Source of the DNA: an uncultured Planctomycetaceae bacterium
GTDB lineage: Bacteria; Planctomycetota; Phycisphaerae; SM23-33
Assembly: GCA_964449175.1 (NCBI GenBank)
Contig: CAYUYH010000001.1
Location: 1-59,215, forward strand
Reading direction: 5' to 3'
Length of the DNA: 59,215 bases
Under the pieces are notes generated by a model, which ran no database searches, was not told the origin of the DNA, and worked only from the letters and a program-made list of their open reading frames with translations. Position 1 is the stretch's first letter; the number at the start of each line of letters is the position of its first letter. The position numbers and the translations under genes are program-made. Positions 27,726 to 44,000 of this stretch are shown in pieces.

Positions 27726-30700
27726 TGGAATACATAAGGAACAACGAGGGCGCCCGTCCGCTGGTCAGCATCATCCTGCTGGACTGGGGCGTCCGCGAGA
27801 GCTTCCACGCGGTCCACTACCTGAACCACCAGGCCTTCCCACGCGACAGATACGAGATCATCTGGGTCGAGTTCTACGATCACAAGCCCGAGGCGCTGGC
27901 CAGGGCGCAGCAGCGGGCAAGCGACGACCGCGACTTCCGCCTCGACAAGTGGATCATCCTCGGATACCCCGAAAGCGTCTACTATCACAAGCATCTGATG
28001 TACAACATCGGTTTCATCGCGGCAGCCGGCGAAATCTGCGCGATCTGCGACTCCGACGCCATTTATCCGCCCACCTTCATCCGTAGCCTCCACAACGCCA
28101 TGAAGATCAGCAAGGACCTGGTGGTGCACGTCGACCAGGTCCGCAGCGAGAACCGCAAGTTCTACCCGTTCAACTACCCGCGGACAGACGATATCCTCCA
28201 GGCCGAGAGCCTGGTCAACTGGACGGGCTCGACCACGACCGGGCTGGCCAACTCCGCCGACTTCGTCCACGACGTCAACTACGGCGCCTGCATGTGCGCC
28301 AGGCGGAGGGATATCATCGGCGTCGGCGGCGCCGACGAACACATCGAGTATCTGGGCTACATATGCGGGCCATACGACCTGACGTGGCGACTCGTCAATG
28401 CCGGCAAGCACGAGCAGTGGCTGACGCACGAGTTCACCTACCACACCTGGCATCCCGGACAGGCCGGGCACCGCAACTTCGGCGGCCCGCACGACGGGCG
28501 GAACGTCTCCAGCCGGGCCCTGGAGGCCAGGGACACCGGCCGAGTCATGCCATTCGTGGAGGATCCGGCCATACTCCAGCTCCGCCAAGGCACGACCAAG
28601 TCGGCCGACGAGCTGCTGGACGAGCTGATGCGGATCGACCGCAGCCAGTGGGCCAATCCCGAGCAGTTCCTCACCGTGCAGGCCCCCGTGCAACTGGTGA
28701 AGTCGAACTACCGCGGGCACAACATCGTCTTCTACAAGGATGAATACTACGGCATGCCCCATGACTGGGGCGAATTCAGCCGCCCCCGGGCCGAAGGCGG
28801 GGATTACGATGAGGTCGCCGGCGATTCGGTCGAGAAGGTCAAACGCCTGATAGACGAGCGAGTGGGCGAAGCTGAGCCGGCCGAAGCCGGCGTGTACGCC
28901 AGCGCCTCGCAGCATGACCATGGCGCCGCCGACTGCGACGAGATGCCGAAGGAGCCAACCCCGCCACTTGCGCAGGCCGAGGTAGAAACGCAGGTTCTCC
29001 AGCCGGTGGCACAGCTGCTATCGAGTGAACAGGCCTTCGCCGACGCCGACGGCGAGATTCCAGACCCGGCCAAGATCGCGCCGATCCTCGTCCGCGAGGG
29101 CTGCCGCGGCCTGAACATTGTCCGTCACGACGGCGAGTACTACGCCGTCAGCCAGGACGGCGGCGCGTTCGACCCGGACAGGCTGACCGCAGGCCGATAC
29201 GGCATATGCTACTGGGGCGCCTCCGAGCAGGAGGTCGTCGCCAAGGCCACGCGCGAGCCGGCCACGAGGGTCGGCCAGTGGGCGCTGCGGCCCGTACGCG
29301 GCGGGATAGCACGCAGAATCGCACGCAAGCTGCTCGACCCGCGAGGCTCGCGACGCCTGTTGCGAGAGCTCGGCCGACAGCAGGCGGTGGACACGATGCG
29401 GCAGAAGCGCTCCGTCCACCTCAGCCAACAGTTGCTGCGCGAGCGGCAGCGCCTGCACGCCCAGCTCGCCGCCAACGAGGCTCAGCGCGCCCACCTTGCG
29501 GCCGAACAGCAACGCCTGGCGACCGAGCGAGCCGCGCTCGCTAACAGGCAGGGCGAGTTCGACGCCCAACTGGCCGACCTGGCCGACAAGCACGCCCGCC
29601 TGGAGGCCCTGTCGGCCTCGGCCACGCGGACAGAGGCGGTGGATCGCCTCCGCAAGGAGCTGGCCGGCCAGGCGATGGCCGTCACGAGGGTCCGCCAGGA
29701 GGCCACCGCCCAGAAGGACCAGCTCCGCCAGGCCCTCGAGCGAATCGAGGATCAGGACCAGGCGCTGCGTCGCAGCCATCAGGAGGCCAAGGAACGCAAC
29801 GAAGTGCTGCGTCGAGCACTCAGCACGCTCAGGGAGCACGAGCAGGCGCAGAGGCGCAGCCGGCTGGAGATGGAATCCCAGGAGCAGCTCCAGCGACAGA
29901 CCGCCGACGAGCTGGCCGCCCAGGAGCAGACCCTCAAGGCCGTCCGAGAGGCCCTCTCCGCCCAGCAGCAGTCGCTCGACGAAGGCCGACGGCAGGCCGA
30001 ACAACACACCGAGGCACTGCGCCTGGCAGGTCAGGCCCGCCAGCAACAGGAGCAATTGCTCCAGGCCGCCCGCGCGGACCTGGACCAGCAGATCCAGGCA
30101 GTCACGGAGACCCGCGGCGATGTCCAGGCCCAGCGACAGCTCATCGATGAGAGCCGCCAGCAGGTCCAGCAGCACGCCGAGGACCTCCGCGTGGCGACCG
30201 AGGCCCAGCGGCAACAGGAGCAGTTGCTCCAGGCCGCCAGGGCGGACCTCGACCAGCAGACGCAGGCCATTGCGGAGACCCGCGGCCAGGTGCAGGCCCA
30301 GCGGCAGTTGATCGATGAGACGCGCCAGAACCAGGAGTACGCGCTGCGCCTGACGTCCCAGACCCAACAGGAGCACGGGCGCCTGCTCGAGGCGGTCCGT
30401 CAGGAGATCGCCCAGCAGAGGCAAGCCCTCGAGCAGACGCGCGCGGAGGTCGAGCGGCAGAGGGAATCAGTGGAGACCTTCTACCGGATGGTCGCCGAGG
30501 TGGCGTTCCACAGGGTCGCCGCCGATCTAAAGGCGCCGATCGGCGAGGGCGCCGCGGGCATCCCCCTGGGCCATCCAGAGCTGCCGGAAGAGCCGCCACC
30601 GCCGGCGGCGCCGGAACCGGCCGACGCCGCCCCGCCGCCACCGCCTGCCAAGCCGCCGCCCCCCGCCCCACAGGTCGCGCCGGAGCTGGCTTGCACGGCC

Positions 30701-31855
30701 GAGCAGAGAGAGGCGATCGACGCCCGCCTCGGACCCGACGCGCCTTGCGACCAGCCGCGCCTGCCGGACGCCGAGCTGTACGAGCTGGTCAAGACCATCG
30801 ACTTCTCCCAGGGGCTGCCCCTGGAGAACACGTTCCTCTACTACTGCGGCCGAAAGGCGCCCGCCGGCGGCAGGATAGTCGACCTCGGCACCGGGCACGG
30901 CGGGTCGGCCTATGTGTTCGCCCGCGCAGTGCAAGGCCGCGACGTGCGTATCGTCAGCGTCGACCATCGCAGCGACTCTCAGGCCGTCGAGCGGCTCAAG
31001 AACACGCCCGTCGAGCTGGTCGAGGCCGATTCGGTGGCCTACGCCAAGAAGTGGCGCCGGCGCAAGGACAGCCGGATCGACCTGCTGTTCATCGACAGCG
31101 GGCACGCCCTGGCCGACGTGTTCAGGGACTATCGCGCGTGGATCGGCTTCGTCGAGCCGCGCGGCGTCGTGGTCTTCCACGACCACGACGTGGCCTCCGA
31201 CGGCGGCACGAACCACTTCGGCGTCCGCGTGTTCATAGACGCGCTGCGCCAGAGGGAGTGCCTGTCGGACCTCTATCACAGCCAGCGGTGCTGCCTGGGC
31301 GTCAAGCCGCCCGGAGAATTGCGGGAGGTGACCCTGGACGACTGCAAGGCGGCGCTCAAGAGGATCGCGGCGAACATCTGCAACATCCTCGACGGCAAGG
31401 CCACGGTCATCAAGGCCTGGCCGAACACGGCCTCGCGGCTGGTCCAGGTCCTCTCGCCGCGGATGCCGGCGCGCATCTGCACGCCGCCGGATAGCGCCGA
31501 GCCGCTCGTGATCGTCGGCAGCGACCAGGGCCTGGATGCCGCCGTCGCCGCCGGACAGGCGCCGCCGATCGACGCCCGGGCGGACAAGCTCACCCTGCTG
31601 TACGTGCTGGACGAGCTGATACGGACCTCCGATGAGCGGACCGTGATGACGATCTCCGCCAACCGCAACGCGATGCTGCACTGGCGAGAGGGCATCTCGA
31701 TGCTCGCCCAGGCGACAAACGCCGGCGGATTCCCCCGTCAGCTGGACGCGATAGACGCAACGAAAAACATCGAGGAGCTGTCACGCTACGTAGCCCTCGA
31801 GCAGACCCGGCTGCTCATGCTGATGGAGCTGGAGCAGCCCGCGACGTACCTGTAG
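27725..31855 (+). CDS. 1376-aa multidomain protein: GT-A-like domain, two small 'GxNIV' modules, a roughly 380-aa coiled coil, a Pro-rich linker, a class I SAM methyltransferase and a C-terminal domain
   Basis: The ATG overlaps the previous stop (TGATG). The N-terminus is paralogous to 48203..49771. There is no Pro between about nt 29354 and 30493. PELPEEPPPPAAPEPADAAPPPPPAKPPPPAP linker. MTase motifs RIVDLGTGHGGSA and DLLFIDSGH. Confidence 0.8.
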   Translation: MEYIRNNEGARPLVSIILLDWGVRESFHAVHYLNHQAFPRDRYEIIWVEFYDHKPEALARAQQRASDDRDFRLDKWIILGYPESVYYHKHLMYNIGFIAAAGEICAICDSDAIYPPTFIRSLHNAMKISKDLVVHVDQVRSENRKFYPFNYPRTDDILQAESLVNWTGSTTTGLANSADFVHDVNYGACMCARRRDIIGVGGADEHIEYLGYICGPYDLTWRLVNAGKHEQWLTHEFTYHTWHPGQAGHRNFGGPHDGRNVSSRALEARDTGRVMPFVEDPAILQLRQGTTKSADELLDELMRIDRSQWANPEQFLTVQAPVQLVKSNYRGHNIVFYKDEYYGMPHDWGEFSRPRAEGGDYDEVAGDSVEKVKRLIDERVGEAEPAEAGVYASASQHDHGAADCDEMPKEPTPPLAQAEVETQVLQPVAQLLSSEQAFADADGEIPDPAKIAPILVREGCRGLNIVRHDGEYYAVSQDGGAFDPDRLTAGRYGICYWGASEQEVVAKATREPATRVGQWALRPVRGGIARRIARKLLDPRGSRRLLRELGRQQAVDTMRQKRSVHLSQQLLRERQRLHAQLAANEAQRAHLAAEQQRLATERAALANRQGEFDAQLADLADKHARLEALSASATRTEAVDRLRKELAGQAMAVTRVRQEATAQKDQLRQALERIEDQDQALRRSHQEAKERNEVLRRALSTLREHEQAQRRSRLEMESQEQLQRQTADELAAQEQTLKAVREALSAQQQSLDEGRRQAEQHTEALRLAGQARQQQEQLLQAARADLDQQIQAVTETRGDVQAQRQLIDESRQQVQQHAEDLRVATEAQRQQEQLLQAARADLDQQTQAIAETRGQVQAQRQLIDETRQNQEYALRLTSQTQQEHGRLLEAVRQEIAQQRQALEQTRAEVERQRESVETFYRMVAEVAFHRVAADLKAPIGEGAAGIPLGHPELPEEPPPPAAPEPADAAPPPPPAKPPPPAPQVAPELACTAEQREAIDARLGPDAPCDQPRLPDAELYELVKTIDFSQGLPLENTFLYYCGRKAPAGGRIVDLGTGHGGSAYVFARAVQGRDVRIVSVDHRSDSQAVERLKNTPVELVEADSVAYAKKWRRRKDSRIDLLFIDSGHALADVFRDYRAWIGFVEPRGVVVFHDHDVASDGGTNHFGVRVFIDALRQRECLSDLYHSQRCCLGVKPPGELREVTLDDCKAALKRIAANICNILDGKATVIKAWPNTASRLVQVLSPRMPARICTPPDSAEPLVIVGSDQGLDAAVAAGQAPPIDARADKLTLLYVLDELIRTSDERTVMTISANRNAMLHWREGISMLAQATNAGGFPRQLDAIDATKNIEELSRYVALEQTRLLMLMELEQPATYL
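29987..30322 (+). repeat. Tandem 168-nt (56-aa) repeat inside the coiled-coil region. Two near-identical units are flanked by diverged units
   Basis: Unit 1 is RRQAEQHTEALRLAGQARQQQEQLLQAARADLDQQIQAVTETRGDVQAQRQLIDES. Unit 2 is RQQVQQHAEDLRVATEAQRQQEQLLQAARADLDQQTQAIAETRGQVQAQRQLIDET. The DNA cores 30044..30160 and 30212..30328 are roughly 80-85 % identical by eye. Confidence 0.8.
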
Positions 31856-31896
31856 CGGCGGACCGCGCCGCTGGGCCGCACGTGGGAGGTGAACCG

Positions 31897-32808
31897 ATGC
31901 GTCAGTTGAGTGCCAAGGAAACTTCAGAGCTGGAGTTCTGGATCGACCACGTCCACGGCGGCGGCTGCGAGAGGGAGTCGGGCCGGCCCTTCCTCGAGCA
32001 GTGGCGCGACGGGGCGAGGGGCAGGCTGAAGTTCTACTTCGAGAACATCCACGACGCCATCGCCCGGGACGGCGCCACGTGGGTGGACGTGGGCTGCGGG
32101 CCGTTCTCCGTCCTGATGGAGGCGCCCGCCGGCATCACCAAGATAATGGTCGACCCGCTGATGAAGTTCTACCTCCACCACAAGCTTGTGCCGCCCGTCG
32201 AGGACACCTCGCGGCACGTCTTCATCGAGGCCGCCGGCGAGGACCTGCCGCTGGCCGACGAGACGGCCGAGATGGTCTTCTGCACGAACACGCTCGATCA
32301 CGTCGCCGATCCGTGGCAGACGCTGTCGGAGCTGGTGCGAATCCTGAAGGTCGGGGGGCACCTGATCATCGACACGGACACCGAGGGCCAGACCGACGAG
32401 ATGCACCCGCATGCCCTGAAGGTCGCCGAGGTGGAGAAGTGCCTGGCCGAGATCGGCGCGCCCAGGACGTTCAGCCACTTCCCCAAAGGGGTCAAGCGTC
32501 GCCCGGGCGCGGTGCTGTACTTCGGCTTCTTCAAGAAGACCGCGCGCCGGCCCGAGCATGCGGAAGCAGTCCCGGCCGGTGCGTCTCATCCGTCGCTGGT
32601 GGCCGAGGGAGTGGACGGGTTCAACATCATCAAGCTGTCCGACTCGCGCCAAGGGGACAGGTACTACGCCATACTGCAGGGCGACGGGGCGTTCTCCTAC
32701 GAGAAGGTCGTCAACTCCGAGTACACTGTCGTGCTGGACGGCAAGAGCGTCGGCCAGGTCAAGCGGGCCATCGGGCGCTACTCCCGCAGCCGACAGCCGA
32801 GCGCCTAG
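31897..32808 (+). CDS. Class I SAM-dependent methyltransferase with a C-terminal 'GFNII' module
   Basis: VDVGCGPFS motif I and LVRILKVGGHLII. GGAGGTGA upstream of the ATG at 31897. C-terminal GVDGFNIIKLSDSRQGDRYYAILQGDGAF. Confidence 0.75.
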   Translation: MRQLSAKETSELEFWIDHVHGGGCERESGRPFLEQWRDGARGRLKFYFENIHDAIARDGATWVDVGCGPFSVLMEAPAGITKIMVDPLMKFYLHHKLVPPVEDTSRHVFIEAAGEDLPLADETAEMVFCTNTLDHVADPWQTLSELVRILKVGGHLIIDTDTEGQTDEMHPHALKVAEVEKCLAEIGAPRTFSHFPKGVKRRPGAVLYFGFFKKTARRPEHAEAVPAGASHPSLVAEGVDGFNIIKLSDSRQGDRYYAILQGDGAFSYEKVVNSEYTVVLDGKSVGQVKRAIGRYSRSRQPSA

Positions 32809-33407
32809 CCGCCCTGCCACAGCGGGATGTTCGCCGCCTTCGTGCAGATCGCGTCGAAGACTATCCCCTCCGATGCGATCTGCCGCCTGTAGTCGGGAAT
32901 CTCCTCGGCCCGGCCCACTAGGTCCGGCGAGACCAGGCAGAGCTTGAAGCCCGCCTCGGTCAGCGCGGCGTACGTCTCGCCGCCGATGGGCAGCCGCGAG
33001 AAGCAGTCCACCCACACCCACCCCACGCGCCCCTGCATGGCCAGGATCGTGTCCAGGCCCTCGAACTCCGAGAACCTCAGCGCGATGTTCCGCTCGCCCG
33101 CCCTGCTGAGCGCGACGATCATCGGAAACGAGCAGTCCAGGAAGAAGTACCGGCTGACGCCGCGGGCGGCCAGCATCTCAGCCACTCTGTGCTCGATCCG
33201 CTCGCTCTTGATGTTCAGGATCATCGTACCGTGGCGATACTGGTCCAGGTAGTCGGCGAAGTCCTCGCCGTCGGCGAACGGATCGTGCTGCATGATCACC
33301 TTCTCGCCGCGGTCGCGCAGGTCGACCTCCACGCCGTAGTCTCTCGGCAGGTCGCGCAACTGGGCTATCGTGTTGATGCGATGCGCGATGAACTCGGTAC
33401 GCGGCAT
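32805..33407 (-). CDS. GDPD/PI-PLC-like phosphodiesterase-fold protein
   Basis: FIAHRINT...GVEVDLRDRGEKVIMQHDPF matches the glycerophosphodiester-phosphodiesterase pattern (HR...E.D...HD). 200 aa. Confidence 0.5.
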   Translation of the reverse strand: MPRTEFIAHRINTIAQLRDLPRDYGVEVDLRDRGEKVIMQHDPFADGEDFADYLDQYRHGTMILNIKSERIEHRVAEMLAARGVSRYFFLDCSFPMIVALSRAGERNIALRFSEFEGLDTILAMQGRVGWVWVDCFSRLPIGGETYAALTEAGFKLCLVSPDLVGRAEEIPDYRRQIASEGIVFDAICTKAANIPLWQGG

Positions 33408-33416
33408 GGCTGGACC

Positions 33417-34454
33417 CTATCGCTCGGCGCTCATGTCCACCACGACCTTGACGATGTCGTGCGGCCTGGGGTCGGTCTTCAGCGAGTACATTCTCTCCAG
33501 CATCTCGCCGAGCTGTGCCAGCGCGATGCGGTGGGTCACCAGACCCTTGACCCAGTCGGCGGCGCCGATCAGCCTGAGGGCCTCGGACCAGTCGTCCGCC
33601 TCGCCGCGCTGGTAGCTGGAGTTCCACACGCCCGAGATGCGAAGCTCCCTGCGGAGGACGCCGGACACCTCGCCCTTCGCCAGCGTCAGGTCACCGGTGA
33701 TGTTGCCCGCCCAGATGACCTGCCCGCAAGGCTGGGCCAGCTTGAGGGACTGCCGGAACATGCTGGCTGCCCCGGCGGCGGTCACGACCAGGGCAAATCG
33801 GCCGTCCGTGGCCGGCGCCTCGGCGGCGGGCATTGCCGTAAGTCCCATATTAGCAGCCAGTTGGAGCTTGAACTGATTCCTGTCAATCACGGTGACGCTG
33901 TAGCCTCGCTCGGCCAGCAGCTTGGCGGCCGTCAGGCCGATCAGCCCGGCGCCTATGACGGCCGCCGGGGCGCTTCGCTCCGGCGGCGGTGCCTGGCGGG
34001 CGATGTGAACGCCGACGGCCATCGGCTCGCACAGGCAGGTGAGCGACGCGTCTACTCCATCCGCTACGGGTAGCAGGTTCCACTCGTCGGCGGTGAGGTA
34101 CTCCTGGAAGCCGCCGTCGCGACGCGAGCCGAAATAGTCGTAGCCCTTGCATAGTGCCCAGTGGCCTTGGCGGCAGGGCTCGCACGGTCTGCACGGGATC
34201 AACGGGAACACCGCGACGTTCTGCCCCGGCGCGAGCGACCGCACGCCGGGGCCCACTTCGACGACCCGGCCGGCGATCTCGTGGCCCATCACCAACGGAT
34301 ACGAATACGCCCCGCCGGCGAACGCGCGGAAGATGTCGGAGTTGCACACGCCGACCGAGCCGACCTTGACCAGGCACTGGCCGTCGCAGGCGGACGGCGG
34401 CGGGCGATCCTGAATCTCCAGGACGCCGTTAGATGTGAGCACCGCTGCCTTCAA
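33417..34454 (-). CDS. Zn-dependent medium-chain dehydrogenase/reductase (polyol/polyol-phosphate dehydrogenase-like)
   Basis: GVCNSDIFRAFAGGAYSYPLVMGHEIAGRVVEVG and GAGLIGLTAAKLL Rossmann motif. The likely start is the TTG at 34454 (LKAAVL...), preceded by GAGGAGG. The ORF-track start is 34475. Confidence 0.8.
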   Translation of the reverse strand: MKAAVLTSNGVLEIQDRPPPSACDGQCLVKVGSVGVCNSDIFRAFAGGAYSYPLVMGHEIAGRVVEVGPGVRSLAPGQNVAVFPLIPCRPCEPCRQGHWALCKGYDYFGSRRDGGFQEYLTADEWNLLPVADGVDASLTCLCEPMAVGVHIARQAPPPERSAPAAVIGAGLIGLTAAKLLAERGYSVTVIDRNQFKLQLAANMGLTAMPAAEAPATDGRFALVVTAAGAASMFRQSLKLAQPCGQVIWAGNITGDLTLAKGEVSGVLRRELRISGVWNSSYQRGEADDWSEALRLIGAADWVKGLVTHRIALAQLGEMLERMYSLKTDPRPHDIVKVVVDMSAER

Positions 34455-35559
34455 GGGCGCCTCCTCGCTTGGCAAACACCCAGAACTTCATTCCGCAGAA
34501 GTTGACTATCGCGCTGACGAGTATCGCGAGCACCTGCCCGAGCTCCGGCCAGATGCCGATCACCTTCACGGCCAGGTATATCGTGACCGTGTTGGCGCCG
34601 AGCGAGGCCAGGTTCACTATCAGGAACTTCCACAGCTCGTGCGCCATGTTCGTGCCCGCGATGCCGAACACGAACGAGCGATTGAGGAAGAAACCCACGA
34701 CAAACCCTGCGAAGAACCCTGCAACCGAGCACACGACCGGGTCCAATCCAACCGCCCACAGCAGGACGATGAACGTGACGTAGTTCGTGGTGTTCGTGAC
34801 GGCGCCGGACAGGCCAAAGCGCAGCACCTGGCCGATGGGGTTGTCCTTCCTGCGCCAGTCGCGCCAACCCATCAGGAAGATGCTCTCGAGGTACTTGGCA
34901 ATCGTTTTGTACTTCTTCAGCAGCGTGCTCGCCCACTTCGACTCGCCGTGCAGCCGCTGGTCGAAGCTCACCTCGATCGAGTTGACGTCCAGGCCCTCTC
35001 TGGCGCCCGCCCAGAACACGTACGTGTCATAGGAGAAGTCCATCGGCGGCTGACCCATCGTCTCCAGCAGCGAGCGGTGGAATACCTTCGGCTGGCCGTT
35101 GATGTCCTCGACGTTCACGCCGGTCAGCGTCGCCGTGATGATGCGCAGCCAGCGGGTGAGCACGCTGGCCCCGTCCCGGCCCGGACGCAGTCCCCGGATG
35201 ATCCCGCGCGTGATGTCAACTTCGCCGGACTCGATCAGCTCGAACGCGCGGAAGATGTCCTCCGGCGGCGTCTGGGCGTCGGCGTGGGAGTAGGCCAGTA
35301 TCTCCCCCCGGGCGGCTGAGAGCCCCGCGTGGATGCCGTGGCCGTAACCGATGTTCTGGTTGATCGTTACGACGCGCACGAACTCGCCGTCGCCGCCCGA
35401 CTGGATCGCCGCCATCACCTCAGCCGTCTCGTCCGTCGAGCCGTTGTTGACCAACACCAGCTCGAAGTCCCAGTTGGCGGCGAATCTCTTGAACCGCTCC
35501 ACCACGACGGGGATGTTCGCGGACTCGTTGTAGCAGGGCAACACGATGCTGTACTTCAT
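34429..35559 (-). CDS. Polyprenyl-phosphate glycosyltransferase (GT2, GtrB/DPM1-like) fused to a GtrA-like 4-TM domain
   Basis: MKYSIVLPCYNESANIP...LVLVNNGSTDET...YSHADAQ. C-terminal LRFGLSGAVTNTTNYVTFIVLL...IVNFCGMKFWVF (GtrA signature). Confidence 0.8.
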   Translation of the reverse strand: MKYSIVLPCYNESANIPVVVERFKRFAANWDFELVLVNNGSTDETAEVMAAIQSGGDGEFVRVVTINQNIGYGHGIHAGLSAARGEILAYSHADAQTPPEDIFRAFELIESGEVDITRGIIRGLRPGRDGASVLTRWLRIITATLTGVNVEDINGQPKVFHRSLLETMGQPPMDFSYDTYVFWAGAREGLDVNSIEVSFDQRLHGESKWASTLLKKYKTIAKYLESIFLMGWRDWRRKDNPIGQVLRFGLSGAVTNTTNYVTFIVLLWAVGLDPVVCSVAGFFAGFVVGFFLNRSFVFGIAGTNMAHELWKFLIVNLASLGANTVTIYLAVKVIGIWPELGQVLAILVSAIVNFCGMKFWVFAKRGGALEGSGAHI

Positions 35560-35566
35560 GCCTGCC

Positions 35567-36355
35567 TTACCTCTGCTGCCAGCCGCTATAGGGGTGGCTC
35601 TCCTCGTGGAAGAAGAAGTCCTCCCACGCCTGGTACAGTTGCAGCTCCAGCGGGTCGCCGAAGGAGATGAACTTCTCCACGGGGAATATGCGGACGTTCT
35701 TGCCGCGGGCGATCACCTCGTTGATGCTCGTGCCCACGTAGAACTCGTTGTTCACGCGGACGTTCTTGTCGATCATCGCCCGGGCGCCGTCGATGAAGTC
35801 GCCAGACCTGCGATAGTAGAACGTGCCCACGACGGCTGGGTCGTACTCGGGCCTGTCGGAGATGATCCGCTTCTCCACCACCTCGGTGACCCTGTCGCCG
35901 TCGGTGCGGCAGAACGCGAAGGCCGCGGGATCCTTCATGCAGACCGACCCCATCTGGAACGTGAAGATCACCACGTCGACTGTCTTGTCCGCGGCGAGCA
36001 GGTCCCAGGCCGCGTGGTCGTAGATGATCTGGTAGTCGATGCTCGAGATCAGCAGCTCCTCCTCGCTGCGGATGTGCTTCTCAGCCAGCAGGCACGTGCA
36101 GGCCTGTCCGTCGGTCACTTCGGGCACGGAGACGATGGCGGAGTTGCGGAAGTACTTCCGCGTCTCCTCGGCGAAGGGGTAGCGCTGGAGGAACTGCTCC
36201 AGGCAGATGAACACGAATCGGTCCGCCGGCGGGAACGAGCTGATCGCCGCCACAAACATCGGCTGTCCCATAATCGGGATGAACGGCTTTGGCAGGCGAT
36301 AGCCGGCCTGGCTGAACCGTCTGCCCCCGCCGGCCATGGGAATCAGACTAAGCAT
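35567..36355 (-). CDS. Sugar/polyol-phosphate nucleotidyltransferase-like protein (GT-A/NTP-transferase fold), copy A
   Basis: LIPMAGGGRRFSQAGYRLPKPFIPIMGQPM (G-x-G-x-R...PKP signature). Tandem paralog of 36348..37136. Confidence 0.55.
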   Translation of the reverse strand: MLSLIPMAGGGRRFSQAGYRLPKPFIPIMGQPMFVAAISSFPPADRFVFICLEQFLQRYPFAEETRKYFRNSAIVSVPEVTDGQACTCLLAEKHIRSEEELLISSIDYQIIYDHAAWDLLAADKTVDVVIFTFQMGSVCMKDPAAFAFCRTDGDRVTEVVEKRIISDRPEYDPAVVGTFYYRRSGDFIDGARAMIDKNVRVNNEFYVGTSINEVIARGKNVRIFPVEKFISFGDPLELQLYQAWEDFFFHEESHPYSGWQQR

Positions 36356-37136
36356 AGCTTATCCGCCTGGCGGCCGTCGCCGGGATATCGTTCCTGAAGT
36401 AGTCGGACCAGAAGGCGAACTGCTCGACGTCGCGCGGCGTGCCCCAGCAGATGAACCGCTCGACCTCGTAGGCGATGACCTTCATGCCTCCGGCGACCAT
36501 GGGGCTGTAGATAAGGCTGATGTAGAACTCCCCGCCGACGTTCTCGCCGGCGGCGAGGACCTGCCGGGCGAATTGCCTGTACGTCCGCCACGACCTGACG
36601 TAGTACACGCCCGTCGAGGCGGGCTCCTCGTGACGATGCTCGGTGAAGGACTGCTTCTCGCGGAGCTCGAGCATCTCTCCCAGCTCGTTGCACCGCAGGT
36701 AGGCGTAGTAGGTATTGCCGAACGAGGCCGGGTGATAGCCCTTGAACACGGCGACGCCGCCGTCGTACCCGTCAACCTTCCAGAGGAACTTGCGGTAGTC
36801 CCAGTGCTGGTAGAAGTCGCAGTAGGTGAAGATGACCGGCTCGTCGTCGTCTATGACGGGGTCGGCCGCCAGCGCGGTCTGAATCGGCCCCATGTCGTGC
36901 GGGTCGATCTCGATGATCGTGTACCTGGGCACGGCGGATGTGAGTATGTCGCGGTACTCCGGCACGGCCCAGTGCGCACGCTGGACGATGAACACGAACT
37001 CGTCGTCCTGGCTGAACATCTCGCAGACCCTATGGCACATGGGCCTGCCGTCTATGGGCATGAACTGCTTGGGCACGGTGTAGCCGGCTCGCCTGAACCG
37101 CTCGGAATTCCCCGCCATGGGAATGACAATGTGCAT
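36348..37136 (-). CDS. Sugar/polyol-phosphate nucleotidyltransferase-like protein, copy B
   Basis: VIPMAGNSERFRRAGYTVPKQFMPIDGRPM. Same length (262 aa) as copy A, with an 8-nt overlap. Confidence 0.55.
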   Translation of the reverse strand: MHIVIPMAGNSERFRRAGYTVPKQFMPIDGRPMCHRVCEMFSQDDEFVFIVQRAHWAVPEYRDILTSAVPRYTIIEIDPHDMGPIQTALAADPVIDDDEPVIFTYCDFYQHWDYRKFLWKVDGYDGGVAVFKGYHPASFGNTYYAYLRCNELGEMLELREKQSFTEHRHEEPASTGVYYVRSWRTYRQFARQVLAAGENVGGEFYISLIYSPMVAGGMKVIAYEVERFICWGTPRDVEQFAFWSDYFRNDIPATAARRISYA

Positions 37137-37153
37137 TGCGTCGATCCTTCAGT

Positions 37154-38059
37154 TCAGCACAGACAATGCGGTCTCCAGTAGGCCACGGACTGCTTGAGGT
37201 CGTCGCCCATCCGCCTCTCAGCCGGGCCTCGCTCGCGGAAACTGATCTCCAGAATGAAGCACACGTCCGTCGCCCCGCCGGCCTCGAAGGCCTGGACGAC
37301 CCTTTCCGGCGTGATCTTTCCCCGCCGGTTGTGTTCGGTGGTGAACGGCCAGTGCCCGCCCTTGTCGTCATGGGACTGCTTGAGATGGATGATGGGGGTG
37401 ATGGCCGCGAAGTGCTCGATCCATGCGTACGGGTCGTTGTCGCGCGCGTCGGCCGAGTCGATATCGCCGTGGTCCACGTCGAGGCACAGCCGCATCGGGA
37501 TGGCAAAATCAGCAAGGGCGGCCTGGATATCCTCGGTCTCGCGGATCGTGCCGCCATACTCCCGCGGGATCGACATCGGCTCCCACGTGAGATACTCCAA
37601 CCCCGCCTTGTGGCCGTGGTCGGCCAGCCGGCGCCAGCAGTCCACGTTGTCGTCGAACACCCCGCGGTGCCTGGCCGGGGCGCTGCAATCGGGGATGGTC
37701 TGGATGCCGAAGTGGCTGCCCATGCTTCTGGCCCCAAGGGCCACGGAGACGTCCGCGAAGGCCTTGAACCACCGCAGCCAATACTCGCGCACCTCGCGGT
37801 CCGGATGGCCGAAGTGGTTGAGGCGCGTAAACGCCCCGGTGAACGTCGAGTGGACGGTCAGCCCATGGTCGTCGGCGATCCGCCGCGTCCGCTCGGCGAT
37901 CCGCATGGCCAGCGGGTCGAGCATGTAGGGCATGAGCATGTCGGCGGTGAGCTGAACACAGTTGATGTCCAGCTCCTCGCGGACAAAGGGGATCCACTGC
38001 TCCGGCGGGGTGAAGCGGTTCACAGCGAAGCCCGTGTTGACCGCCAGCGCGATCTTCAT
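37154..38059 (-). CDS. Sugar-phosphate isomerase/epimerase (xylose-isomerase-like TIM barrel)
   Basis: 301 aa. MKIALAVNTGF...HSTFTGAF...GSHFG...LDVDHGD pattern of the AP-endonuclease-2/TIM family. Confidence 0.6.
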   Translation of the reverse strand: MKIALAVNTGFAVNRFTPPEQWIPFVREELDINCVQLTADMLMPYMLDPLAMRIAERTRRIADDHGLTVHSTFTGAFTRLNHFGHPDREVREYWLRWFKAFADVSVALGARSMGSHFGIQTIPDCSAPARHRGVFDDNVDCWRRLADHGHKAGLEYLTWEPMSIPREYGGTIRETEDIQAALADFAIPMRLCLDVDHGDIDSADARDNDPYAWIEHFAAITPIIHLKQSHDDKGGHWPFTTEHNRRGKITPERVVQAFEAGGATDVCFILEISFRERGPAERRMGDDLKQSVAYWRPHCLC

Positions 38060-38754
38060 GCCTCACCACCCAGGCCGCGCCCCTCGTCTATGGCGCCCTT
38101 CAGCCGAACGAAGCTCTCAGCCAGGGGAACGTCGGACGTGAACAGCCCCGAGGTGCCGAGGACCAGCATGTCCGCGCCCGCGGCGACCATGTTCGGGATG
38201 TTGGCGAAGCTGACGTTGCCGTCAACGACTATGTCCAGCTTGTAGCCGGCGCGGTCGCGCCACTCCTTCAGCCGCTCGATCTTCTTCAGCACCTGGGGGA
38301 CGATCCTCTGGCTGGGCGCGCCGGGGTTGACCGTCATGATGGTGACAAGGTTGACCTCCTCGACGACGTACTCGATGTGGTCCAGCGTGGTGGCCGGGTT
38401 GACCACCAGCCCGGGCGAGAAGCCCAACTGGCGCAGCTTCACCAGCTCGCGATGGAGGTTCCTGCACGCCTCGTAGTGCAGGCTGACGCGAGCGCCTTCC
38501 TGCCGCGGTATGAACTCGAAGATCCGCTTGGGCTCCTCGACCATCAGGTGATAGTCCGACTGGAGCGAGGTGCTGGCGATGATCTTGCGGATGAGGTAGA
38601 ACGGCAGGCCGAACTCCGGCACGAAGTAGCTGTCGCAGACGTCGTAGTGCATGTAGTCGACCGGGAAGCCCTCCAGCAGCTCGATGTCGTGCTTCGGGTC
38701 GAAGAAGTTCATGCAGATCGCGGATGCCGAGATTTTGATGCCGTTGTACGCCAT
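38056..38754 (-). CDS. Ribulose-phosphate 3-epimerase family protein (divergent)
   Basis: ISASAICMNF...YMHYDVCDSYFVPEFG...HLMV...VTIMTVNPGAPSQ...IVVDGNV...AGADMLVLGTS follows the Rpe scaffold, with substitutions in the MDGHFVPN motif. Confidence 0.65.
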   Translation of the reverse strand: MAYNGIKISASAICMNFFDPKHDIELLEGFPVDYMHYDVCDSYFVPEFGLPFYLIRKIIASTSLQSDYHLMVEEPKRIFEFIPRQEGARVSLHYEACRNLHRELVKLRQLGFSPGLVVNPATTLDHIEYVVEEVNLVTIMTVNPGAPSQRIVPQVLKKIERLKEWRDRAGYKLDIVVDGNVSFANIPNMVAAGADMLVLGTSGLFTSDVPLAESFVRLKGAIDEGRGLGGEA

Positions 38755-38755
38755 T

Positions 38756-39826
38756 CTAGCGCCCGTTGGAGTCCCATGGCCTCACGACCACCTTCAGCCC
38801 TTTCTGCGTCTGGACGGTCTCAAACGCCTCGGCGATTCGCTCCAGGCCGAAGCGATGCGTGATCAGGGAGTCAACCTGGATCCGCCCGGAGGCGATCATG
38901 CTGACGGCCAGCGTGTGCTGCGTCGGCGTCGAGCCGTGCGAGCCCGTGGCCGACGCCTCCCGATAGTGCAGCGTGTTGGAGTGCAGCGAGATGTCGCGGG
39001 CATCGCCGGCCAGCCCGCCGAAGAAGTTCACCACGCCGCGCTTGGCGACGACCTCGACGGCCTGCTCCTGCGCCTCGGGGCTTGAGCACGCCGTCAGGAT
39101 CACGTCGAAGCCCTCCCGCTCCTTCGCCACTTGCTCGTCGATCTGCTTGAGCGTGACCTCGCGCCCGTCGAATACGTTGCCCAGGCCCAGTTCCCGCGCC
39201 AGGCGGATGCGGTGCTCGCTGCGGTCGACCAGCGCCACCAGCGACGCCCCGAACGCCTCGGCCGAGCGGGCCAGCAGCATCCCCACGGGCCCGGCGCCGA
39301 TGATGAGCACCGTCTTGCCCGGCGCCATCGCCGCCCGCTCCAGGCCGTTGATGCAGCAGGCCAGCGGCTCGGCGAGCGTGGCCGAGTCGTAGGAGACGTG
39401 CTCCGGGATCGTCGCGACCGGTCCGAACCGCACCGTCAACTCGTTCAGCAGGCAGTACTGGGCGAATCCGCCGGGGAACTGATAGCCGATCGCGTAGTTG
39501 ATGTCGCAGAGGTTCGCCAGCCCGCGCTTGCTCCACTCGTCGGCCATGCTCGGCACGTCCGCGCCGAGGGCGACGCGCCGGCCGGGGCGGAGCCGCTCGA
39601 CGCCCGGCCCCACCTCGACCACCTCGCCGGCTATCTCGTGCCCGATGATGGCCGGATACTTCACCCGGTCGTTGCCGGAGTTGAATATCCGCACGTCCGA
39701 CCCGCACACCGAGCACGCGTGGACCTTGACCAGCACCTCGCCGGCGGCCGGGGCCGCGACCTCCGCGCTCTCGACGCGGATGTCTCCGATGCCGTGCAGG
39801 CGCGCGCATTTCATGGTCCGGCCCAT
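38756..39826 (-). CDS. Zn-dependent medium-chain dehydrogenase/reductase (sorbitol/threonine dehydrogenase-like)
   Basis: ACSVCGSDVRIF...IIGHEIAGEVVEVG and IIGAGPVGMLLA. GGAGGT lies 5 nt upstream of the ATG at 39826. Confidence 0.8.
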   Translation of the reverse strand: MGRTMKCARLHGIGDIRVESAEVAAPAAGEVLVKVHACSVCGSDVRIFNSGNDRVKYPAIIGHEIAGEVVEVGPGVERLRPGRRVALGADVPSMADEWSKRGLANLCDINYAIGYQFPGGFAQYCLLNELTVRFGPVATIPEHVSYDSATLAEPLACCINGLERAAMAPGKTVLIIGAGPVGMLLARSAEAFGASLVALVDRSEHRIRLARELGLGNVFDGREVTLKQIDEQVAKEREGFDVILTACSSPEAQEQAVEVVAKRGVVNFFGGLAGDARDISLHSNTLHYREASATGSHGSTPTQHTLAVSMIASGRIQVDSLITHRFGLERIAEAFETVQTQKGLKVVVRPWDSNGR

Positions 39827-39828
39827 CG

Positions 39829-41799
39829 CTACCTCCGCGAGTCGCCTTCGGACAAGTGGATCAGTGTGTACCGGCCTGCTTCCTGCCGCCGGAAGCCGGC
39901 GAGCGCGTCCGGCACGCTGCCCCGCACGAGAACGGCCTCGACGGGGTTGCGGCGGAGCAGCTCGTCCAGCGTCGCGCTGCCGTGAAGCTCGCGGGCCTTG
40001 CGGACAAGCTCGTCCAGCTCCTCAGCCGTCAGCCGCTTCTTGTGATTCAGCAGCCAATACCCAAGCCCGTTGGCCATCATCCCGTCGGTGACGACAACGT
40101 CCTTGTTCTCGTAACTGTTCAGCGCGTCGAATCGCGCGGTCGGTCTCAGGAAGTCCGTCAGGCGCCGCTCATCCCAGCCGAACAGCTTGGCGTAGAGGAC
40201 GATGCGGTCGAGGATGGCGTCCTCGTCGATGAAGTTGCCGAATGCGCTGGGCAGCAGCGTGGCCCTGGCCGTGATCGCCGGCGAGAGGAGATTGGCCGCG
40301 ATGCTCTCGTAGGCGACCAGCCCGGCGGCGCTGACATCCGACCGCTCAACGGCGTCGATCTGTGCCATAACCTCGCGCATGGCAGATGGAACTGCCTTCT
40401 CGTGCCTGCGGAAGATGTGCACGTCCGTCAGGACGATGTACGCCGACAGCAGGCAGACGCCGATCACCACGTACACGACGCGGTAGCGGTGGATGTATCG
40501 CCGCAGCAGGTCCGGCAGCGTCTGGTGCAGCACTCGCCACGGCCTGGATCTCCTGGCGGAGACGTGCTTGGCCGGCAGGCTGATGAAGTACAGGAACGGA
40601 ATGAAGTAGAAGAACCTGAACACGATGTTCGAGATTCGATGGAAGTACAGCTCGGGGTTCACCCGCTGGCCGGCTACAAGGTGGATGCTGCCTATGAGCA
40701 GGTCCACGATCAGGGCCAGGAACACGGGCATGCATCGCCCGAACAGTTCGTAGTAGTCGCCCTGGAACAGGAAAAAGCTCACCGCGAGAAGCGCGATCGG
40801 CAGGCCGTAGCCGAACATCGCGCCCCAGTCGCTGGTGGTGACGGCCCCGGCGGCCGGCGCGAACAGCTTGTCGGACATCTGCCTGCCGAGCGGGCTGGCA
40901 GCCGCCGCGTAGCATGGCGCGCCGAGCAGGATGCAGACGCCCAGGAATACGGCGATCGAGCCGACGATCGCGCCGAAGTGGTAGCGGCGGTCGGTCATGC
41001 GACGGGCGTAGATGATCCACAACACGAAGAACAGCGCCCCGGCCACAAAGTTGAAGAAGTAGACATACACCTGAAGCGCCCACACGACGCTGAGGAAGAA
41101 CAGCCTCCCAGGCGTCAGGCGGAAGTGCCGCAGCGTCAGGTACAGCGGAATCAGGAACAGTACCAGCGAGATGCTCGGAAACGGGACTCGGGCGGCCTCC
41201 GGCAGTGTGGGGCTCAGGAACGAGCCACCCTGTCCGTTGGCTGATGCGAAGAGCGAGGCGAGGCCCTCGACGTAGTGGAAGCCGGAGAAATACGTCACGC
41301 CGAAAAACGCCAGCAGCACCGCCCAGGTCTTCGAGACGTATCGCTTGAACAGGTGATAGATCAGCCAGAAGATCAGCACCGGCAGGACCCCGTGGGCGAT
41401 CAGCAGGAAGGCGTCGACGTTGCCCAGTGCACAGACCTTCAGGACCACGCCCTCCAGCGAGAACGTGATCCACGGGAACACGGACACCGCCGAGAGTGTC
41501 TTGTCGTATGTCGGGGCGACGGGGAAGAGGTTCTCCGGTGAGAACGCCTGTGCGAACGGCGTGTAGATTACCACCTCTTCCCAGCGCTGGACGGGCACGC
41601 CGACGGCGCCGTACAGGTGAGGCCAGTCGCTCAGGCCAAGGACCAGCACATCGCTCAGGGCGAACAGCGCTAGGACGAGCACGGTCATCAGAATTCGCAC
41701 CGGCCAGGACAGCCGCTCGCTGTGCAGCGACGCGGGAAGGAACAGATACGAGAGGAACCCCGACAGCGTCGACCTGGTGTCTTGTGCAGGATCGCTCAC
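39829..41799 (-). CDS. Large polytopic membrane protein (about 14 hydrophobic segments) with a soluble C-terminal domain; possible GT-C transferase/polymerase
   Basis: 656 aa. Hydrophobicity pattern only; no motif I can name. Confidence 0.3.
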   Translation of the reverse strand: MSDPAQDTRSTLSGFLSYLFLPASLHSERLSWPVRILMTVLVLALFALSDVLVLGLSDWPHLYGAVGVPVQRWEEVVIYTPFAQAFSPENLFPVAPTYDKTLSAVSVFPWITFSLEGVVLKVCALGNVDAFLLIAHGVLPVLIFWLIYHLFKRYVSKTWAVLLAFFGVTYFSGFHYVEGLASLFASANGQGGSFLSPTLPEAARVPFPSISLVLFLIPLYLTLRHFRLTPGRLFFLSVVWALQVYVYFFNFVAGALFFVLWIIYARRMTDRRYHFGAIVGSIAVFLGVCILLGAPCYAAAASPLGRQMSDKLFAPAAGAVTTSDWGAMFGYGLPIALLAVSFFLFQGDYYELFGRCMPVFLALIVDLLIGSIHLVAGQRVNPELYFHRISNIVFRFFYFIPFLYFISLPAKHVSARRSRPWRVLHQTLPDLLRRYIHRYRVVYVVIGVCLLSAYIVLTDVHIFRRHEKAVPSAMREVMAQIDAVERSDVSAAGLVAYESIAANLLSPAITARATLLPSAFGNFIDEDAILDRIVLYAKLFGWDERRLTDFLRPTARFDALNSYENKDVVVTDGMMANGLGYWLLNHKKRLTAEELDELVRKARELHGSATLDELLRRNPVEAVLVRGSVPDALAGFRRQEAGRYTLIHLSEGDSRR

Positions 41800-41957
41800 C
41801 GCGGCTGGCCCCTCCCTTCCCGCGCCGCCGTGGCGGCGCAGCCAGTCCGCCCCGCGTCGGCGAGCGGCGGAATCACGCCGATCAGACGACTGACAGCGAT
41901 GCTGTTGGCAAGGCCTTCCATGGCAGGCGACGGTGATACGGCGACACCTGGTCCTGG

Positions 41958-43559
41958 CTAGCGGTTTCCTACCTGTTCCGTGCTGACGCCTTGATATGTC
42001 CGCCGGGCGACCGGCTCAAACGAACAGGCCAGGCCGGCGAATCCGTCGAACCGCTGCTTCTCCTGCACGACAACGTAGATCATGCCGCAGCGGATGTCAA
42101 TCGGCACGTCCTCGGCCGGTTCCTTCTCGGCGATGCCAAGGTCCAGGAAGTAGTCGCCCCAGTGGACGTCGAGCGTGACCGTCAGCTTTCCGATGACGAT
42201 CTCGCCGGCGTCGGCCGGGGCCAGCTCGACGTCGAGAAGCCGCGTGTTCATGCCGAAAACCATCACGCCGTCGACCGTCTTGACGGCCAGGCCGAACATC
42301 GGACGCTCGATCCGCTGCTTGACGCGCGCCTTGATGTAGATGTCCAGCGTGTCTCCGCTGTAGACGGCCGGCGGATCGCACCTGTCGCCGCAGGTGATCA
42401 TGCAGTCGACGATCTCCGCGCGGCGATCGCCGAATCGGTGCTCGTTCTTGTTGTATGCGCCGCGCTGGGGGCACATGTCCATCTCCGGCACGTGGCGGAC
42501 GAACTGCTCCACGGCGTCCTGGGCCCTGTCGCCGGCCCTGGCCGTCTCGTAGACGCCCGCCGTCGCGGTATCGTCCCAGGCTGCTGCCTCGGGCACGAGC
42601 TCATCGACCGCCTGTAGCACGCCCTCCTCGGACGGGGCGATCGCGCACAGGCGGTCGCTCTGGTAGCGGCTGAGGATCGAGTCCGGGATCGCGTCCAGGT
42701 CAATCGGCCCCAGTGCCCGGGCCAGCGCGAAGAAGCGCCGGCCGAACCTGATGATGTTGAACCCCTTGTAGCCCTCGATGAGGATTTCGGGGTAAGGGAC
42801 GTACCCGTCGATCTTGCCGGTGAACAGCAGCTCGTAATAGCAGTTGGCCACGTGGTTCGGCTCGCCGCGTTCGAGCACCTTGCCGTGGTCCAGGAGGATC
42901 GCGTGGCTGCAATACTTTACGATCGCGTTGGTGTCGTGGCTGACGAAGAGGATGGTCTTGCCCATCCGCTGGAATTCGAGGAACTTCTGGAAGCATTTGT
43001 GCTGGAACTTCGCGTCGCCGACGGACAGCGCCTCGTCTATCACGAGGATGTCGGCGTCGACGTGGATGGCCGCGCTGAACGCCAGGCGGACGTACATGCC
43101 GGATGAGTAGGTCTTCACTGGCTGGGATACGAAGTCCCCGATGTCGGCGAAGGCCTCGACCCGCGGCAGGCGGCGCGTTATCTCCTTTTCCGACAGGCCC
43201 TTGAGTCGGCCGTTGAAGATGACGTTCTCCCTGCCGGTCAGCTCGGGGTTGAATCCGGTCCCCAGCTCCAGCAGCGAGGAGACCGACCCGGCCACCTCCG
43301 CCGTGCCGTTCGTGGGGCGCAGAATGCCGCAGATGATCGCCAGCAGCGTGCTCTTGCCGCTGCCGTTCGGGCCGATGATGCCGACCGTGGCCCCCTTGCG
43401 AACGTCGAAGCTGACGTCCTTCAACGCCCAGAACGTGCGATGATACCTCTTGCGCAGAGGATGTATCGCCTCGAGGAGGCGGTGCCTGTGGGAGGCGAAC
43501 AGGCGGTATGCCCTGGAGACTCCGCACACGCGAATGGCTGTAGCTGTCCCGTCGGCCAT
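41958..43559 (-). CDS. wzt: Polysaccharide ABC exporter ATPase (Wzt) with an inserted 'GFNII' module and a C-terminal Wzt_C-like carbohydrate-binding domain
   Basis: Walker A GPNGSGKST, signature YSSGMYVRLAFS, Walker B ILVIDEALSVGD. The C-terminal part (HRFGDRRAEIVDCMI... onward) is beta-rich, as in Wzt_C. True start is the ATG at 43559 (MADGT...); the ORF-track extension to 43865 is rejected. Confidence 0.85.
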   Translation of the reverse strand: MADGTATAIRVCGVSRAYRLFASHRHRLLEAIHPLRKRYHRTFWALKDVSFDVRKGATVGIIGPNGSGKSTLLAIICGILRPTNGTAEVAGSVSSLLELGTGFNPELTGRENVIFNGRLKGLSEKEITRRLPRVEAFADIGDFVSQPVKTYSSGMYVRLAFSAAIHVDADILVIDEALSVGDAKFQHKCFQKFLEFQRMGKTILFVSHDTNAIVKYCSHAILLDHGKVLERGEPNHVANCYYELLFTGKIDGYVPYPEILIEGYKGFNIIRFGRRFFALARALGPIDLDAIPDSILSRYQSDRLCAIAPSEEGVLQAVDELVPEAAAWDDTATAGVYETARAGDRAQDAVEQFVRHVPEMDMCPQRGAYNKNEHRFGDRRAEIVDCMITCGDRCDPPAVYSGDTLDIYIKARVKQRIERPMFGLAVKTVDGVMVFGMNTRLLDVELAPADAGEIVIGKLTVTLDVHWGDYFLDLGIAEKEPAEDVPIDIRCGMIYVVVQEKQRFDGFAGLACSFEPVARRTYQGVSTEQVGNR

Positions 43560-43886
43560 TGTTCGCACCACGCCCCGACAGCGGAAAGCCAAACCGCAGG
43601 CGGAAAGGACTCCCTCAGTGCCGGCCTGGACCGCCATGCCGCCGATCCGGCCACGTCGCCCCATCGCGCCGCACGCGGGCGCTTCGCAGCAGCCCCCGTC
43701 GCCACCGGACCCGTGCCCCATGCACAGCGTCCCTGCTGCAAGGGCAAGGCCAGTTCCTCGTCCGAACTGGCGCTGTCTGCCCGTCGGAGTCATTTCCCAG
43801 CGAGCCAGCGAGTGCATTATATCTGGCCTGGCCAGACGATCAACGGCCAACTGGGATTCGCCCACAAAATCGTTGACAGGCGGGCG

Positions 43887-43918: not shown

Positions 43919-44000
43919 GGCAGCATGCGTTGGGAGCGTCGAAAACGGCGCCGCGGGCTTGACGAGGGCCCGGGGGATGCTCCTACGCGCCAAGGATGGT

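Follow-up and report, generated by a model that had tools for sequence, protein, structure and literature searches.

A recurrent accessory domain on polymer-acting enzymes and the export ATPase of ABC-transporter-dependent glycan loci

A 59,215-nucleotide stretch of DNA from an uncultured Planctomycetaceae bacterium (contig CAYUYH010000001.1 of assembly GCA_964449175.1), the whole of which is called the window here, encodes four copies of a small domain, or module, in three proteins: a putative polymerase/terminator "ruler" (P1), a methyltransferase (P2) and Wzt, the ATPase of a Wzm/Wzt ATP-binding cassette (ABC) transporter. Our analysis indicates that the module is a non-catalytic accessory domain of ABC-transporter-dependent glycan assembly. 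In one class of glycan loci that depend on an ABC transporter, it marks polymer-acting cytoplasmic proteins, often with the export ATPase among them. Judged by sequence comparison, it represents a real and large family that is unnamed in the libraries searched, and this family is new within a known kind, the accessory tethering modules of glycan-assembly enzymes. Glycan assembly that depends on ABC transporters is thought to need multiprotein complexes as well as recognition of the finished chain by Wzt, and to our knowledge it is only in a few enterobacterial models that the parts linking enzymes, polymer and exporter have been identified.

The module family and its predicted fold

An earlier note on this DNA had described four look-alike segments of 30-50 amino acids (aa) with a common consensus. 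All four were found in the frames that it gave, with starts that were off by one codon, too late in copies a, b and c and too early in copy d (Table 1 gives the domain limits used here). Chance resemblance, which the note itself had named as grounds for abandoning the idea, was checked by profile searches, and the similarity proved significant. Profiles built from any three copies recovered the fourth among 725 six-frame fragments, with independent E-values (i-E) of 8.5e-7 for a, 2e-12 for b, 3e-11 for c and 6e-5 for d, and yielded no additional match in the window at E<1. The note's consensus was specific, finding just the four sites in 97,482 residues of six-frame translation, once its first gap, x(4-8), had been widened to x(4-11) to accommodate the 10 residues that copy c has at this point. 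The widened pattern had zero matches across 200 residue shuffles. Because each three-copy profile recovers the remaining copy and the consensus is this specific, the similarity of the four segments is real and not a product of chance. A profile of the wider family assigned i-E values of 1.6e-19 (a), 3.6e-20 (b), 6.3e-19 (c) and 7.1e-17 (d), and profile searches revealed no fifth copy in the window.

We rejected the idea that the copies arose by recent duplication or shuffling of DNA inside the window, there being no DNA-level repeats. The window copies are 25-31% identical among themselves, compared with 42-47% to orthologous copies of other loci (numbered here with an L); for example, the nearest relative of copy a is the first copy of a P1-like protein in L010 (47% identity).

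The family profile showed that the unit is longer than had been claimed, extending over 63-71 aa. The amphipathic segment that the earlier note placed 15-25 residues downstream does exist; it is not a separate element, however, but the C-terminal helix of the domain (consensus S-x-E-E-V-K-x-x-I-D). According to AlphaFold2 (AF2) models, the module is an autonomously folding domain of ~60-70 residues with the predicted topology β1-β2-β3-α1-β4-α2. The model of copy b, made from a 124-sequence alignment, had a predicted local distance difference test score (pLDDT) of 82 and a predicted template-modelling score (pTM) of 0.67, with elements β9-15, β18-23, β26-31, α39-43, β49-53 and α56-65. In the full-length Wzt model (pLDDT 88), 10-residue blocks of copy d had mean pLDDT values of 79-94 and the elements were β254-264, β267-273, β275-280, α293-301, β305-308 and α311-321. 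Thus, the predicted β-β-β-α-β-α order is common to copies b and d, the first helix being longer in d, which belongs to a "long" subtype with an extended α1. Fold models were made for these two copies; copies a and c fit the family profile at E ~1e-19, and copy c carries a 5-residue insertion in the β2-β3 hairpin.

Alignment of 428 copies gave the family consensus P-x-L-V-E-E-G-Y-[RK]-G-[FY]-N-I-[IV]-x-[YF]-x-G-x-[YF]-Y-[AG]-[IL]-P-Q-x-E-G-A-F-D-...-K-...-G-x-Y-...-F-x-G-x-S-x-E-E-V-K-x-x-I-D. Its conserved positions are rich in Tyr and Phe and also include Asn, Gln, Glu and Asp, and just one Asn (95%) and one Gly (96%) are near-invariant. Because the module is small and repeated, and no conserved residue set of catalytic type was identified in it, we infer that it is non-catalytic.

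Among 1.84 billion proteins, a profile built from the four window copies matched 1,099 cluster representatives with E<=1e-3, of which 471 reached E<=1e-10 and 80 reached E<=1e-30. This corresponds to a background frequency of ~6e-7 per representative protein. The best 150 of the 1,099 representatives contain 2-12 copies per protein, in a ranking by total score that favors multi-copy proteins; across the family overall, the copy number is 1-12. Start-to-start distances between neighboring copies peak at 64 and 70 aa and lie within 60-75 aa in 70% of cases. Since the core measures ~60 aa, this spacing leaves almost no linker between copies. The array makes up the protein's C-terminal end in 65 of 96 long hosts.

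The earlier note could not assign the segments to a named domain, and we were likewise unable to do so. Neither Pfam-A (2025 copy) nor NCBIfam (release 20) has a model that covers the module in the three window proteins, the 96 long hosts, the tandem-only proteins or the consensus; the precomputed Pfam lists of module-bearing genes have nothing over it, and the source names of these proteins, where given, are "hypothetical protein". Foldseek searches returned nothing significant from PDB (best E 1.3, template-modelling score <0.4) or BFVD (best E 0.11), a sequence profile search of PDB with the 124-sequence profile reached a best E of 0.22, word-indexed protein searches with module profiles yielded no useful match, and we found no description of such a domain in the full-text literature.

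Several marginal matches were considered and rejected. The four-copy profile matched an Aquifex "DNA ligase" (3qwu_A) at E 0.0012 over EEKVDGYN...YYAL, at motif I (KxDG) of ATP-dependent ligases. This likeness was judged to be due to chance because its E-value fades to 0.22 with the 124-sequence profile and the position of the catalytic Lys is Gly in the consensus. Partial matches to DUF3310 in two of 58 hosts were also dismissed as chance. Finally, the β-sandwich families CarbopepD_reg_2 (30.7 bits against a cut-off of 32.2), fn3_3 and EMC7 were matched in tandem-only proteins; these were rejected because the matches lie below the cut-off, vary between proteins and clash with the predicted α/β topology.

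Host proteins and loci

The identities proposed earlier for the three hosts in the window, i.e., P1, the methyltransferase P2 and Wzt, agree with their Pfam domain matches (Table 1).

Table 1. Module copies, their host proteins and the transporter permease in the window
Feature	Position	Strand	Description
Module copy a	28682..28870	+	Follows the GT-A-like domain and precedes the coiled coil; residues 334-396 of P1, numbered from 27683
Module copy b	29075..29263	+	P1 residues 465-527
Module copy c	32581..32793	+	P2 residues 234-304 of 308, C-terminus
Module copy d	42588..42800	-	Wzt residues 254-324 (counted from Met at 43559), hinge between nucleotide-binding and carbohydrate-binding domains
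P1	27725..31855	+	Putative polymerase/terminator "ruler"; database protein P0006 starts at 27725
P2	31897..32808	+	Class I S-adenosylmethionine (SAM) methyltransferase, Methyltransf_11 E 3e-13; ATG at 31897; module c C-terminal
Wzt ATPase	41958..43559	-	533 aa; ABC_tran E 5e-21, Wzt_C E 2e-23; identical to database protein P0160
Wzm (ABC-2 permease)	22785..23594	+	ABC2_membrane E 1e-20; start at 22785 or 22845

P1 begins with a glycosyltransferase (GT)-A-like domain (aa 12-315), which is followed by modules a and b and then by ~385 aa of coiled-coil-like sequence; after a Pro-rich linker come a Methyltransf_24 domain (E 3.5e-16) and a C-terminal region. The GT2 match is weak, and the N-terminal domain matches proteins of L003 and L005 with the order GT, modules, GT1 at E 1e-104. 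Residues 560-945 are rich in Q, E, R, A and L and gave weak matches of the SMC and PspA coiled-coil type. P1 resembles WbdD (Escherichia coli O9a, Klebsiella pneumoniae O3) and WbbB (K. pneumoniae O12) in that it joins a GT domain, through a putative long coiled coil, to a methyltransferase at the distal end, and in that it is encoded in one gene cluster with wzm and wzt; it is a putative coiled-coil terminator of this type. P1 has no sequence homology to WbdD or WbbB, and the module shows no sequence similarity to them in Pfam/NCBIfam scans or in PDB sequence and fold searches.

The coiled-coil-like region of P1 also contains an internal duplication of ~40 residues at a spacing of ~57 residues (window 30038-30328, plus strand; residues ~786-882), with the pattern QQEQLLQAARADLDQQ.QA..ETRG.VQAQRQLIDE.RQ. 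Such a duplication could represent a lengthening of the putative ruler. At the DNA level, Tandem Repeats Finder detected no tandem repeat across P1, nor was the duplication among the results when 29300-30700 was searched for direct repeats. A further gene at 47858-49771 (plus strand) encodes a 637-aa protein with a close paralogue of P1's GT-A-like domain at residues 128-425. This protein has no module and matches the same L003 and L005 proteins at E 1e-100.

The host of copy d has a nucleotide-binding domain (NBD) that matches Aquifex aeolicus Wzt (8dku) at E 2e-74, together with Wzt_C, and is encoded with Wzm. Its order is NBD, module d, disordered linker and helix, and the Wzt_C carbohydrate-binding domain (CBD). 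For both wzt and wzm, the longest open reading frame (ORF) extends beyond the likely start, by 43560-43865 (minus strand) and 22434-22784 (plus strand), respectively. The database start of Wzt is the Met at 43559, 102 codons after that of the longest ORF. For Wzm, the longest ORF starts at 22434; because the homologues of L005, L004 and L001 align only from its residue 119-122, the start is probably 22785 or 22845.

Of the 120 cluster representatives nearest to the window Wzt, 55 have one module only, at residues ~250-320, and 65 have none; median lengths are 518 aa with the module and 457 aa without it. The NBD of the window protein (residues 8-247, including the hinge helix) aligns with residues 2-239 of A. 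aeolicus Wzt, and CBD residues 401-447 align with 277-323. In the window Wzt, residue 247 is the last of the NBD and the CBD lies beyond residue 370, with a stretch predicted to be disordered (325-342 in the full-length AF2 model) between module d and the CBD. In A. aeolicus Wzt, the NBD-CBD linker comprises the 9 residues 241-249, and its geometry accompanies nucleotide-dependent repositioning of the CBD dimer (PMC9445017).

The module shares several properties with Wzt_C (PF14524), which is likewise a non-catalytic domain of the same exporter ATPase on the cytoplasmic side and has diverged at a similar rate. It differs in location (Wzt_C occupies residues 373-521; the Wzt_C profile match covers 474-611 of the long ORF), has no sequence match to Wzt_C and is predicted to have an α/β (β3-α-β-α) rather than an all-β fold. 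Furthermore, Wzt_C is confined to Wzt, whereas the module is spread over many enzymes, often in tandem.

The proteins that carry the module had been claimed to be those that must cooperate in one process. Our results support this to the extent that all three window hosts belong to one ABC-transporter-dependent pathway and that the pattern recurs in distant genomes, including Wzt together with coiled-coil terminator-like proteins. The module is also found on many other enzyme classes, such as sulfotransferases, radical-SAM enzymes and GT4 proteins. Where partner domains could be identified, nearly all were glycan-related, and most came from enzymes with cytoplasmic donors. In the 96 long hosts, these included GT2 (17), Methyltransf_24 (8), Methyltransf_11-type (7) and radical SAM (6), followed by GT1/GT4, sulfotransferases, a pyruvyl transferase and a few others; coiled-coil terminator-like proteins also occur among the hosts. 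No module-bearing host contained a domain for sugar-nucleotide precursor synthesis (epimerase, aminotransferase, kinase, NTP-transferase or transketolase-like), though such domains are common in the same loci.

Recurrent host types are proteins with the order GT-A-like, modules, GT1; proteins in which modules precede a coiled coil; Methyltransf_24 proteins; sulfotransferases; and radical-SAM enzymes. Modules lie between two GT domains in proteins of L003 (7 copies), L005 and L007, and before the coiled coil in P1 and its L010 homologue. The latter, a Methyltransf_24 protein of 1,170 aa encoded directly downstream of wzt, has two modules that pair one-to-one with copies a and b. At the extremes, one sulfotransferase host carries 9 copies plus an adenylylsulfate (APS) kinase domain, P0007 is a membrane protein with four modules, and P0009 (cluster member PYS00937.1) is a stand-alone four-module protein.

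Seven loci were fetched by Wzt identity alone, five with a module in Wzt and two without, and all seven encode further module-bearing enzymes within 10 kb on either side. A genome scan with a consensus peptide gave at least five loci. Module-bearing genes number 2-5 per locus, with four each in L003 (Sedimentisphaerales) and L004 (Nitrospira) and five each in L005 (Anaerohalosphaeraceae), L007 and L012. In L001, L004, L011 and L012, Wzt lacks the module while the neighboring enzymes still have it. Given the background frequency of the module per representative protein, its association with Wzt loci is not due to chance; the Wzt-fetched loci are related by descent and are, therefore, not independent events. 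An obligatory link to Wzm/Wzt was rejected, since a module protein of L002 (Lentisphaerota) lies beside type IV pilus/type II secretion system (T2SS) ATPase genes with no Wzm/Wzt within 20 kb. The lineages in which this pathway class was seen, mostly uncultured, are Nitrospirota, Planctomycetota, Lentisphaerota and Acidobacteriota.

Comparison of 76 copies showed that the nearest relative outside the own protein is, for 73 of them, a copy in another locus, in the orthologous host and at the orthologous position. Thus, the copies cluster by orthology of the host protein and not by locus. There are host-specific subtypes, such as the "long" L-G-x-[IV]-D-L...C type found in Wzt, some coiled-coil proteins and some Methyltransf_24 proteins. 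Near-identical neighboring copies in L012 and L003 indicate that arrays have recently expanded.

Other genes of the window and of related loci

Segments 20397-21530, 35567-39826 and 43440-47499 of the window contain a conserved precursor gene set in common with the distant Wzt-related loci L006, L008, L009 and L010. Its members include epimerases and nucleoside triphosphate (NTP) transferases as well as a GHMP kinase, a radical-SAM enzyme that binds B12, a xylose-isomerase-like (AP_endonuc_2) protein and a split transketolase-like pair. The window additionally encodes a ribulose-phosphate 3-epimerase and two zinc alcohol dehydrogenases. The common set suggests a shared unusual sugar component. 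Two adjacent genes (35567-36355 and 36348-37136, both minus strand) encode 262-aa paralogues (mutual E 4e-26), one with a MobA-like NTP-transferase match and the other with no Pfam match.

Three large proteins of 656, 584 and 1,094 aa, encoded at 39829-41799 (minus), 23748-25502 (plus) and 12022-15306 (minus), respectively, have no Pfam match. The first two genes directly adjoin wzt and wzm, and their products have no detectable homologue in L001-L005. The window opens with genes for a type IV pilus/T2SS ATPase (T2SSE with MshEN) and a T2SSF protein (32-2863, plus); in L002 (1247-7197), the same gene types flank the only module gene, which may be coincidence. L009 has insertions of toxin-antitoxin-type genes (Polbeta/HepT-like, HicA, PIN) in the interval from wzm to wzt and at a site beyond (9057-9972 and 15756-19628).

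Possible functions of the module

We infer that the module tethers its hosts to a common target. The target that we prefer to protein docking is the nascent polymer, bound multivalently, a reading that we consider plausible but hold only tentatively. In this mechanism, each copy would weakly bind the nascent lipid-linked polysaccharide at the cytoplasmic face, and tandem copies would add avidity. The enzymes that act on the polymer, i.e., polymerase GTs, capping or decorating methyl- and sulfotransferases, and radical-SAM modifiers, would thereby stay on one chain. In Wzt, the module beside the cap-binding CBD would hold the body of the chain, or might instead lengthen the tether of the CBD. 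The mode of action would resemble that of starch- and glycogen-binding modules, which occur on varied intracellular enzymes of one polymer's metabolism. The modules CBM20, CBM48 and CBM53 bind starch or glycogen and are present in one to several tandem copies on diverse intracellular enzymes of the same polymer. They follow the same appended-module logic, while differing in their β-sandwich fold and having no sequence relation to the module.

Polymer binding is favored by the variable, fast-changing number of tandem copies on enzymes, which is typical of avidity-driven polymer-binding repeats, by the restriction of hosts to polymer-acting enzymes and by the retention of the module on enzymes where Wzt lacks it. 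It is also favored by a precedent in the K. pneumoniae O7 terminator ORF6, where a putative Ig-like carbohydrate-binding module (CBM) lies between the catalytic domains and the coiled coil (PMC11231755). This CBM is, like the module, an unannotated non-catalytic domain at a comparable place in a terminator; it differs in being an Ig-like β-sandwich, and it was described as unique among terminators, with no reported sharing with pathway partners. In addition, mean pairwise identity within Wzt falls from 68% in the NBD to 41% in the CBD and 35% in the module. By this comparison, the Wzt module evolves about as fast as the glycan-recognizing CBD, which we counted in favor of polymer binding, as we did the richness of the consensus in conserved Tyr and Phe.

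Several observations weigh against this reading. The module has no similarity to known carbohydrate-binding families in fold, PDB sequence or Pfam/NCBIfam searches, and the family consensus contains no conserved Trp; its conserved aromatic residues may form the core rather than an exposed surface. The glycans differ between loci, yet the motif is conserved, and no locus-specific signature was seen among the 76 copies. Finally, the only carriers within 10 kb on either side in L006, L009 and L010 are Wzt and one terminator-like or sulfotransferase protein.

These minimal exporter-terminator pairs are explained equally well by protein-protein docking or oligomerization, in which copies would bind each other or a common partner and so assemble the polymerase, terminator, decorating enzymes and Wzm/Wzt at the membrane, with arrays as multivalent scaffolds. 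We regard this alternative as possible but doubtful. The module is present on several different proteins in every Wzm/Wzt locus examined, its host-specific subtypes are kept across phyla, as fits defined interfaces, and P0007 and P0009/PYS00937.1 look scaffold-like. Furthermore, P1 and its relatives have their modules placed after the N-terminal domain and before the coiled coil, and WbdD of E. coli O9a recruits its polymerase at its membrane-proximal end, which holds the WbdA-recruiting site (PMC11231755). This recruitment region, however, is neither a repeated domain nor present on Wzt. The dockerin-cohesin systems, which pair two complementary module types, likewise put a common tag on diverse enzymes that belong to the same pathway and are encoded at a single locus. 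However, dockerin-cohesin enzymes carry one tag and the arrays are on scaffolds, whereas here there is a single module type without a Ca-binding repeat motif and the enzymes themselves carry arrays of up to 9 copies. Docking is also at odds with the rapid change in copy number, with the near absence of flexible linkers between neighboring copies and with the finding that the module is missing from about half of the Wzt proteins nearest to this one, and that neighboring enzymes keep it in the four such loci examined. The three-partner form proposed in the earlier note is weakened because the usual form of the module is a tandem array of 2-12 on enzymes, many further enzyme classes carry it and copies cluster by host orthology rather than by locus. 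The alternative offered in that note, a glycan-binding module, fits the tandem arrays, the breadth of hosts, the loci with module-free Wzt and the clustering by host orthology at least as well. In a bolder version of docking, which we likewise regard as possible but doubtful, the module would be a self-recognizing "velcro" domain that couples the coiled-coil terminator and other polymer-acting enzymes to each other and to Wzt in a polymerase-terminator-exporter factory, across a widespread class of glycan pathways that depend on ABC transporters. If true, it would be the first modular, sequence-recognizable assembly tag for such machines.

Two further explanations were weighed. The spacing of 64 or 70 aa for a core of ~60 aa, with almost no linker, and the placement of arrays between two GT domains (L003, L005 and L007) or before the coiled coil (P1 and L010) would suit a rigid spacer, i.e., a head-to-tail rod that sets distances between catalytic domains or to the coiled coil and thus adds to the ruler function. 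We find this improbable: in the 65 of 96 long hosts with the array at the extreme C-terminus it has nothing to separate, a spacer does not need a strongly conserved motif, and the single copies in P2 and Wzt are left unexplained, though the copy in Wzt does lengthen the CBD tether. Still less probable, in our view, is peripheral binding to the membrane or the lipid carrier, which would bring soluble enzymes to the membrane that bears the undecaprenyl-linked glycan. Every host has to work on a lipid-linked substrate at the face of the membrane, and WbdD does use a membrane-binding amphipathic helix (PMC11231755). However, the copies are near-neutral to acidic rather than cationic (median net charge -1, interquartile range -3 to 0 for the 428 copies), which disfavors electrostatic binding, and their sequence has no evident amphipathic or hydrophobic surface feature. 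Moreover, Wzm already holds Wzt at the membrane, and copy d probably sits away from the bilayer.

Whichever target it has, the module tags polymer-acting enzymes, and often the exporter, in >1,000 protein clusters, which is reason to add the new family to domain databases. As a marker, it can be used to find and delimit this class of glycan loci in uncultured phyla, and as a small soluble domain it offers an experimental handle on glycan binding or self-association. For export itself, the presence of a module within the NBD-CBD linker predicts that the coupling between cap recognition and ATP hydrolysis would be changed in about half of the Wzt proteins most closely related to this one.

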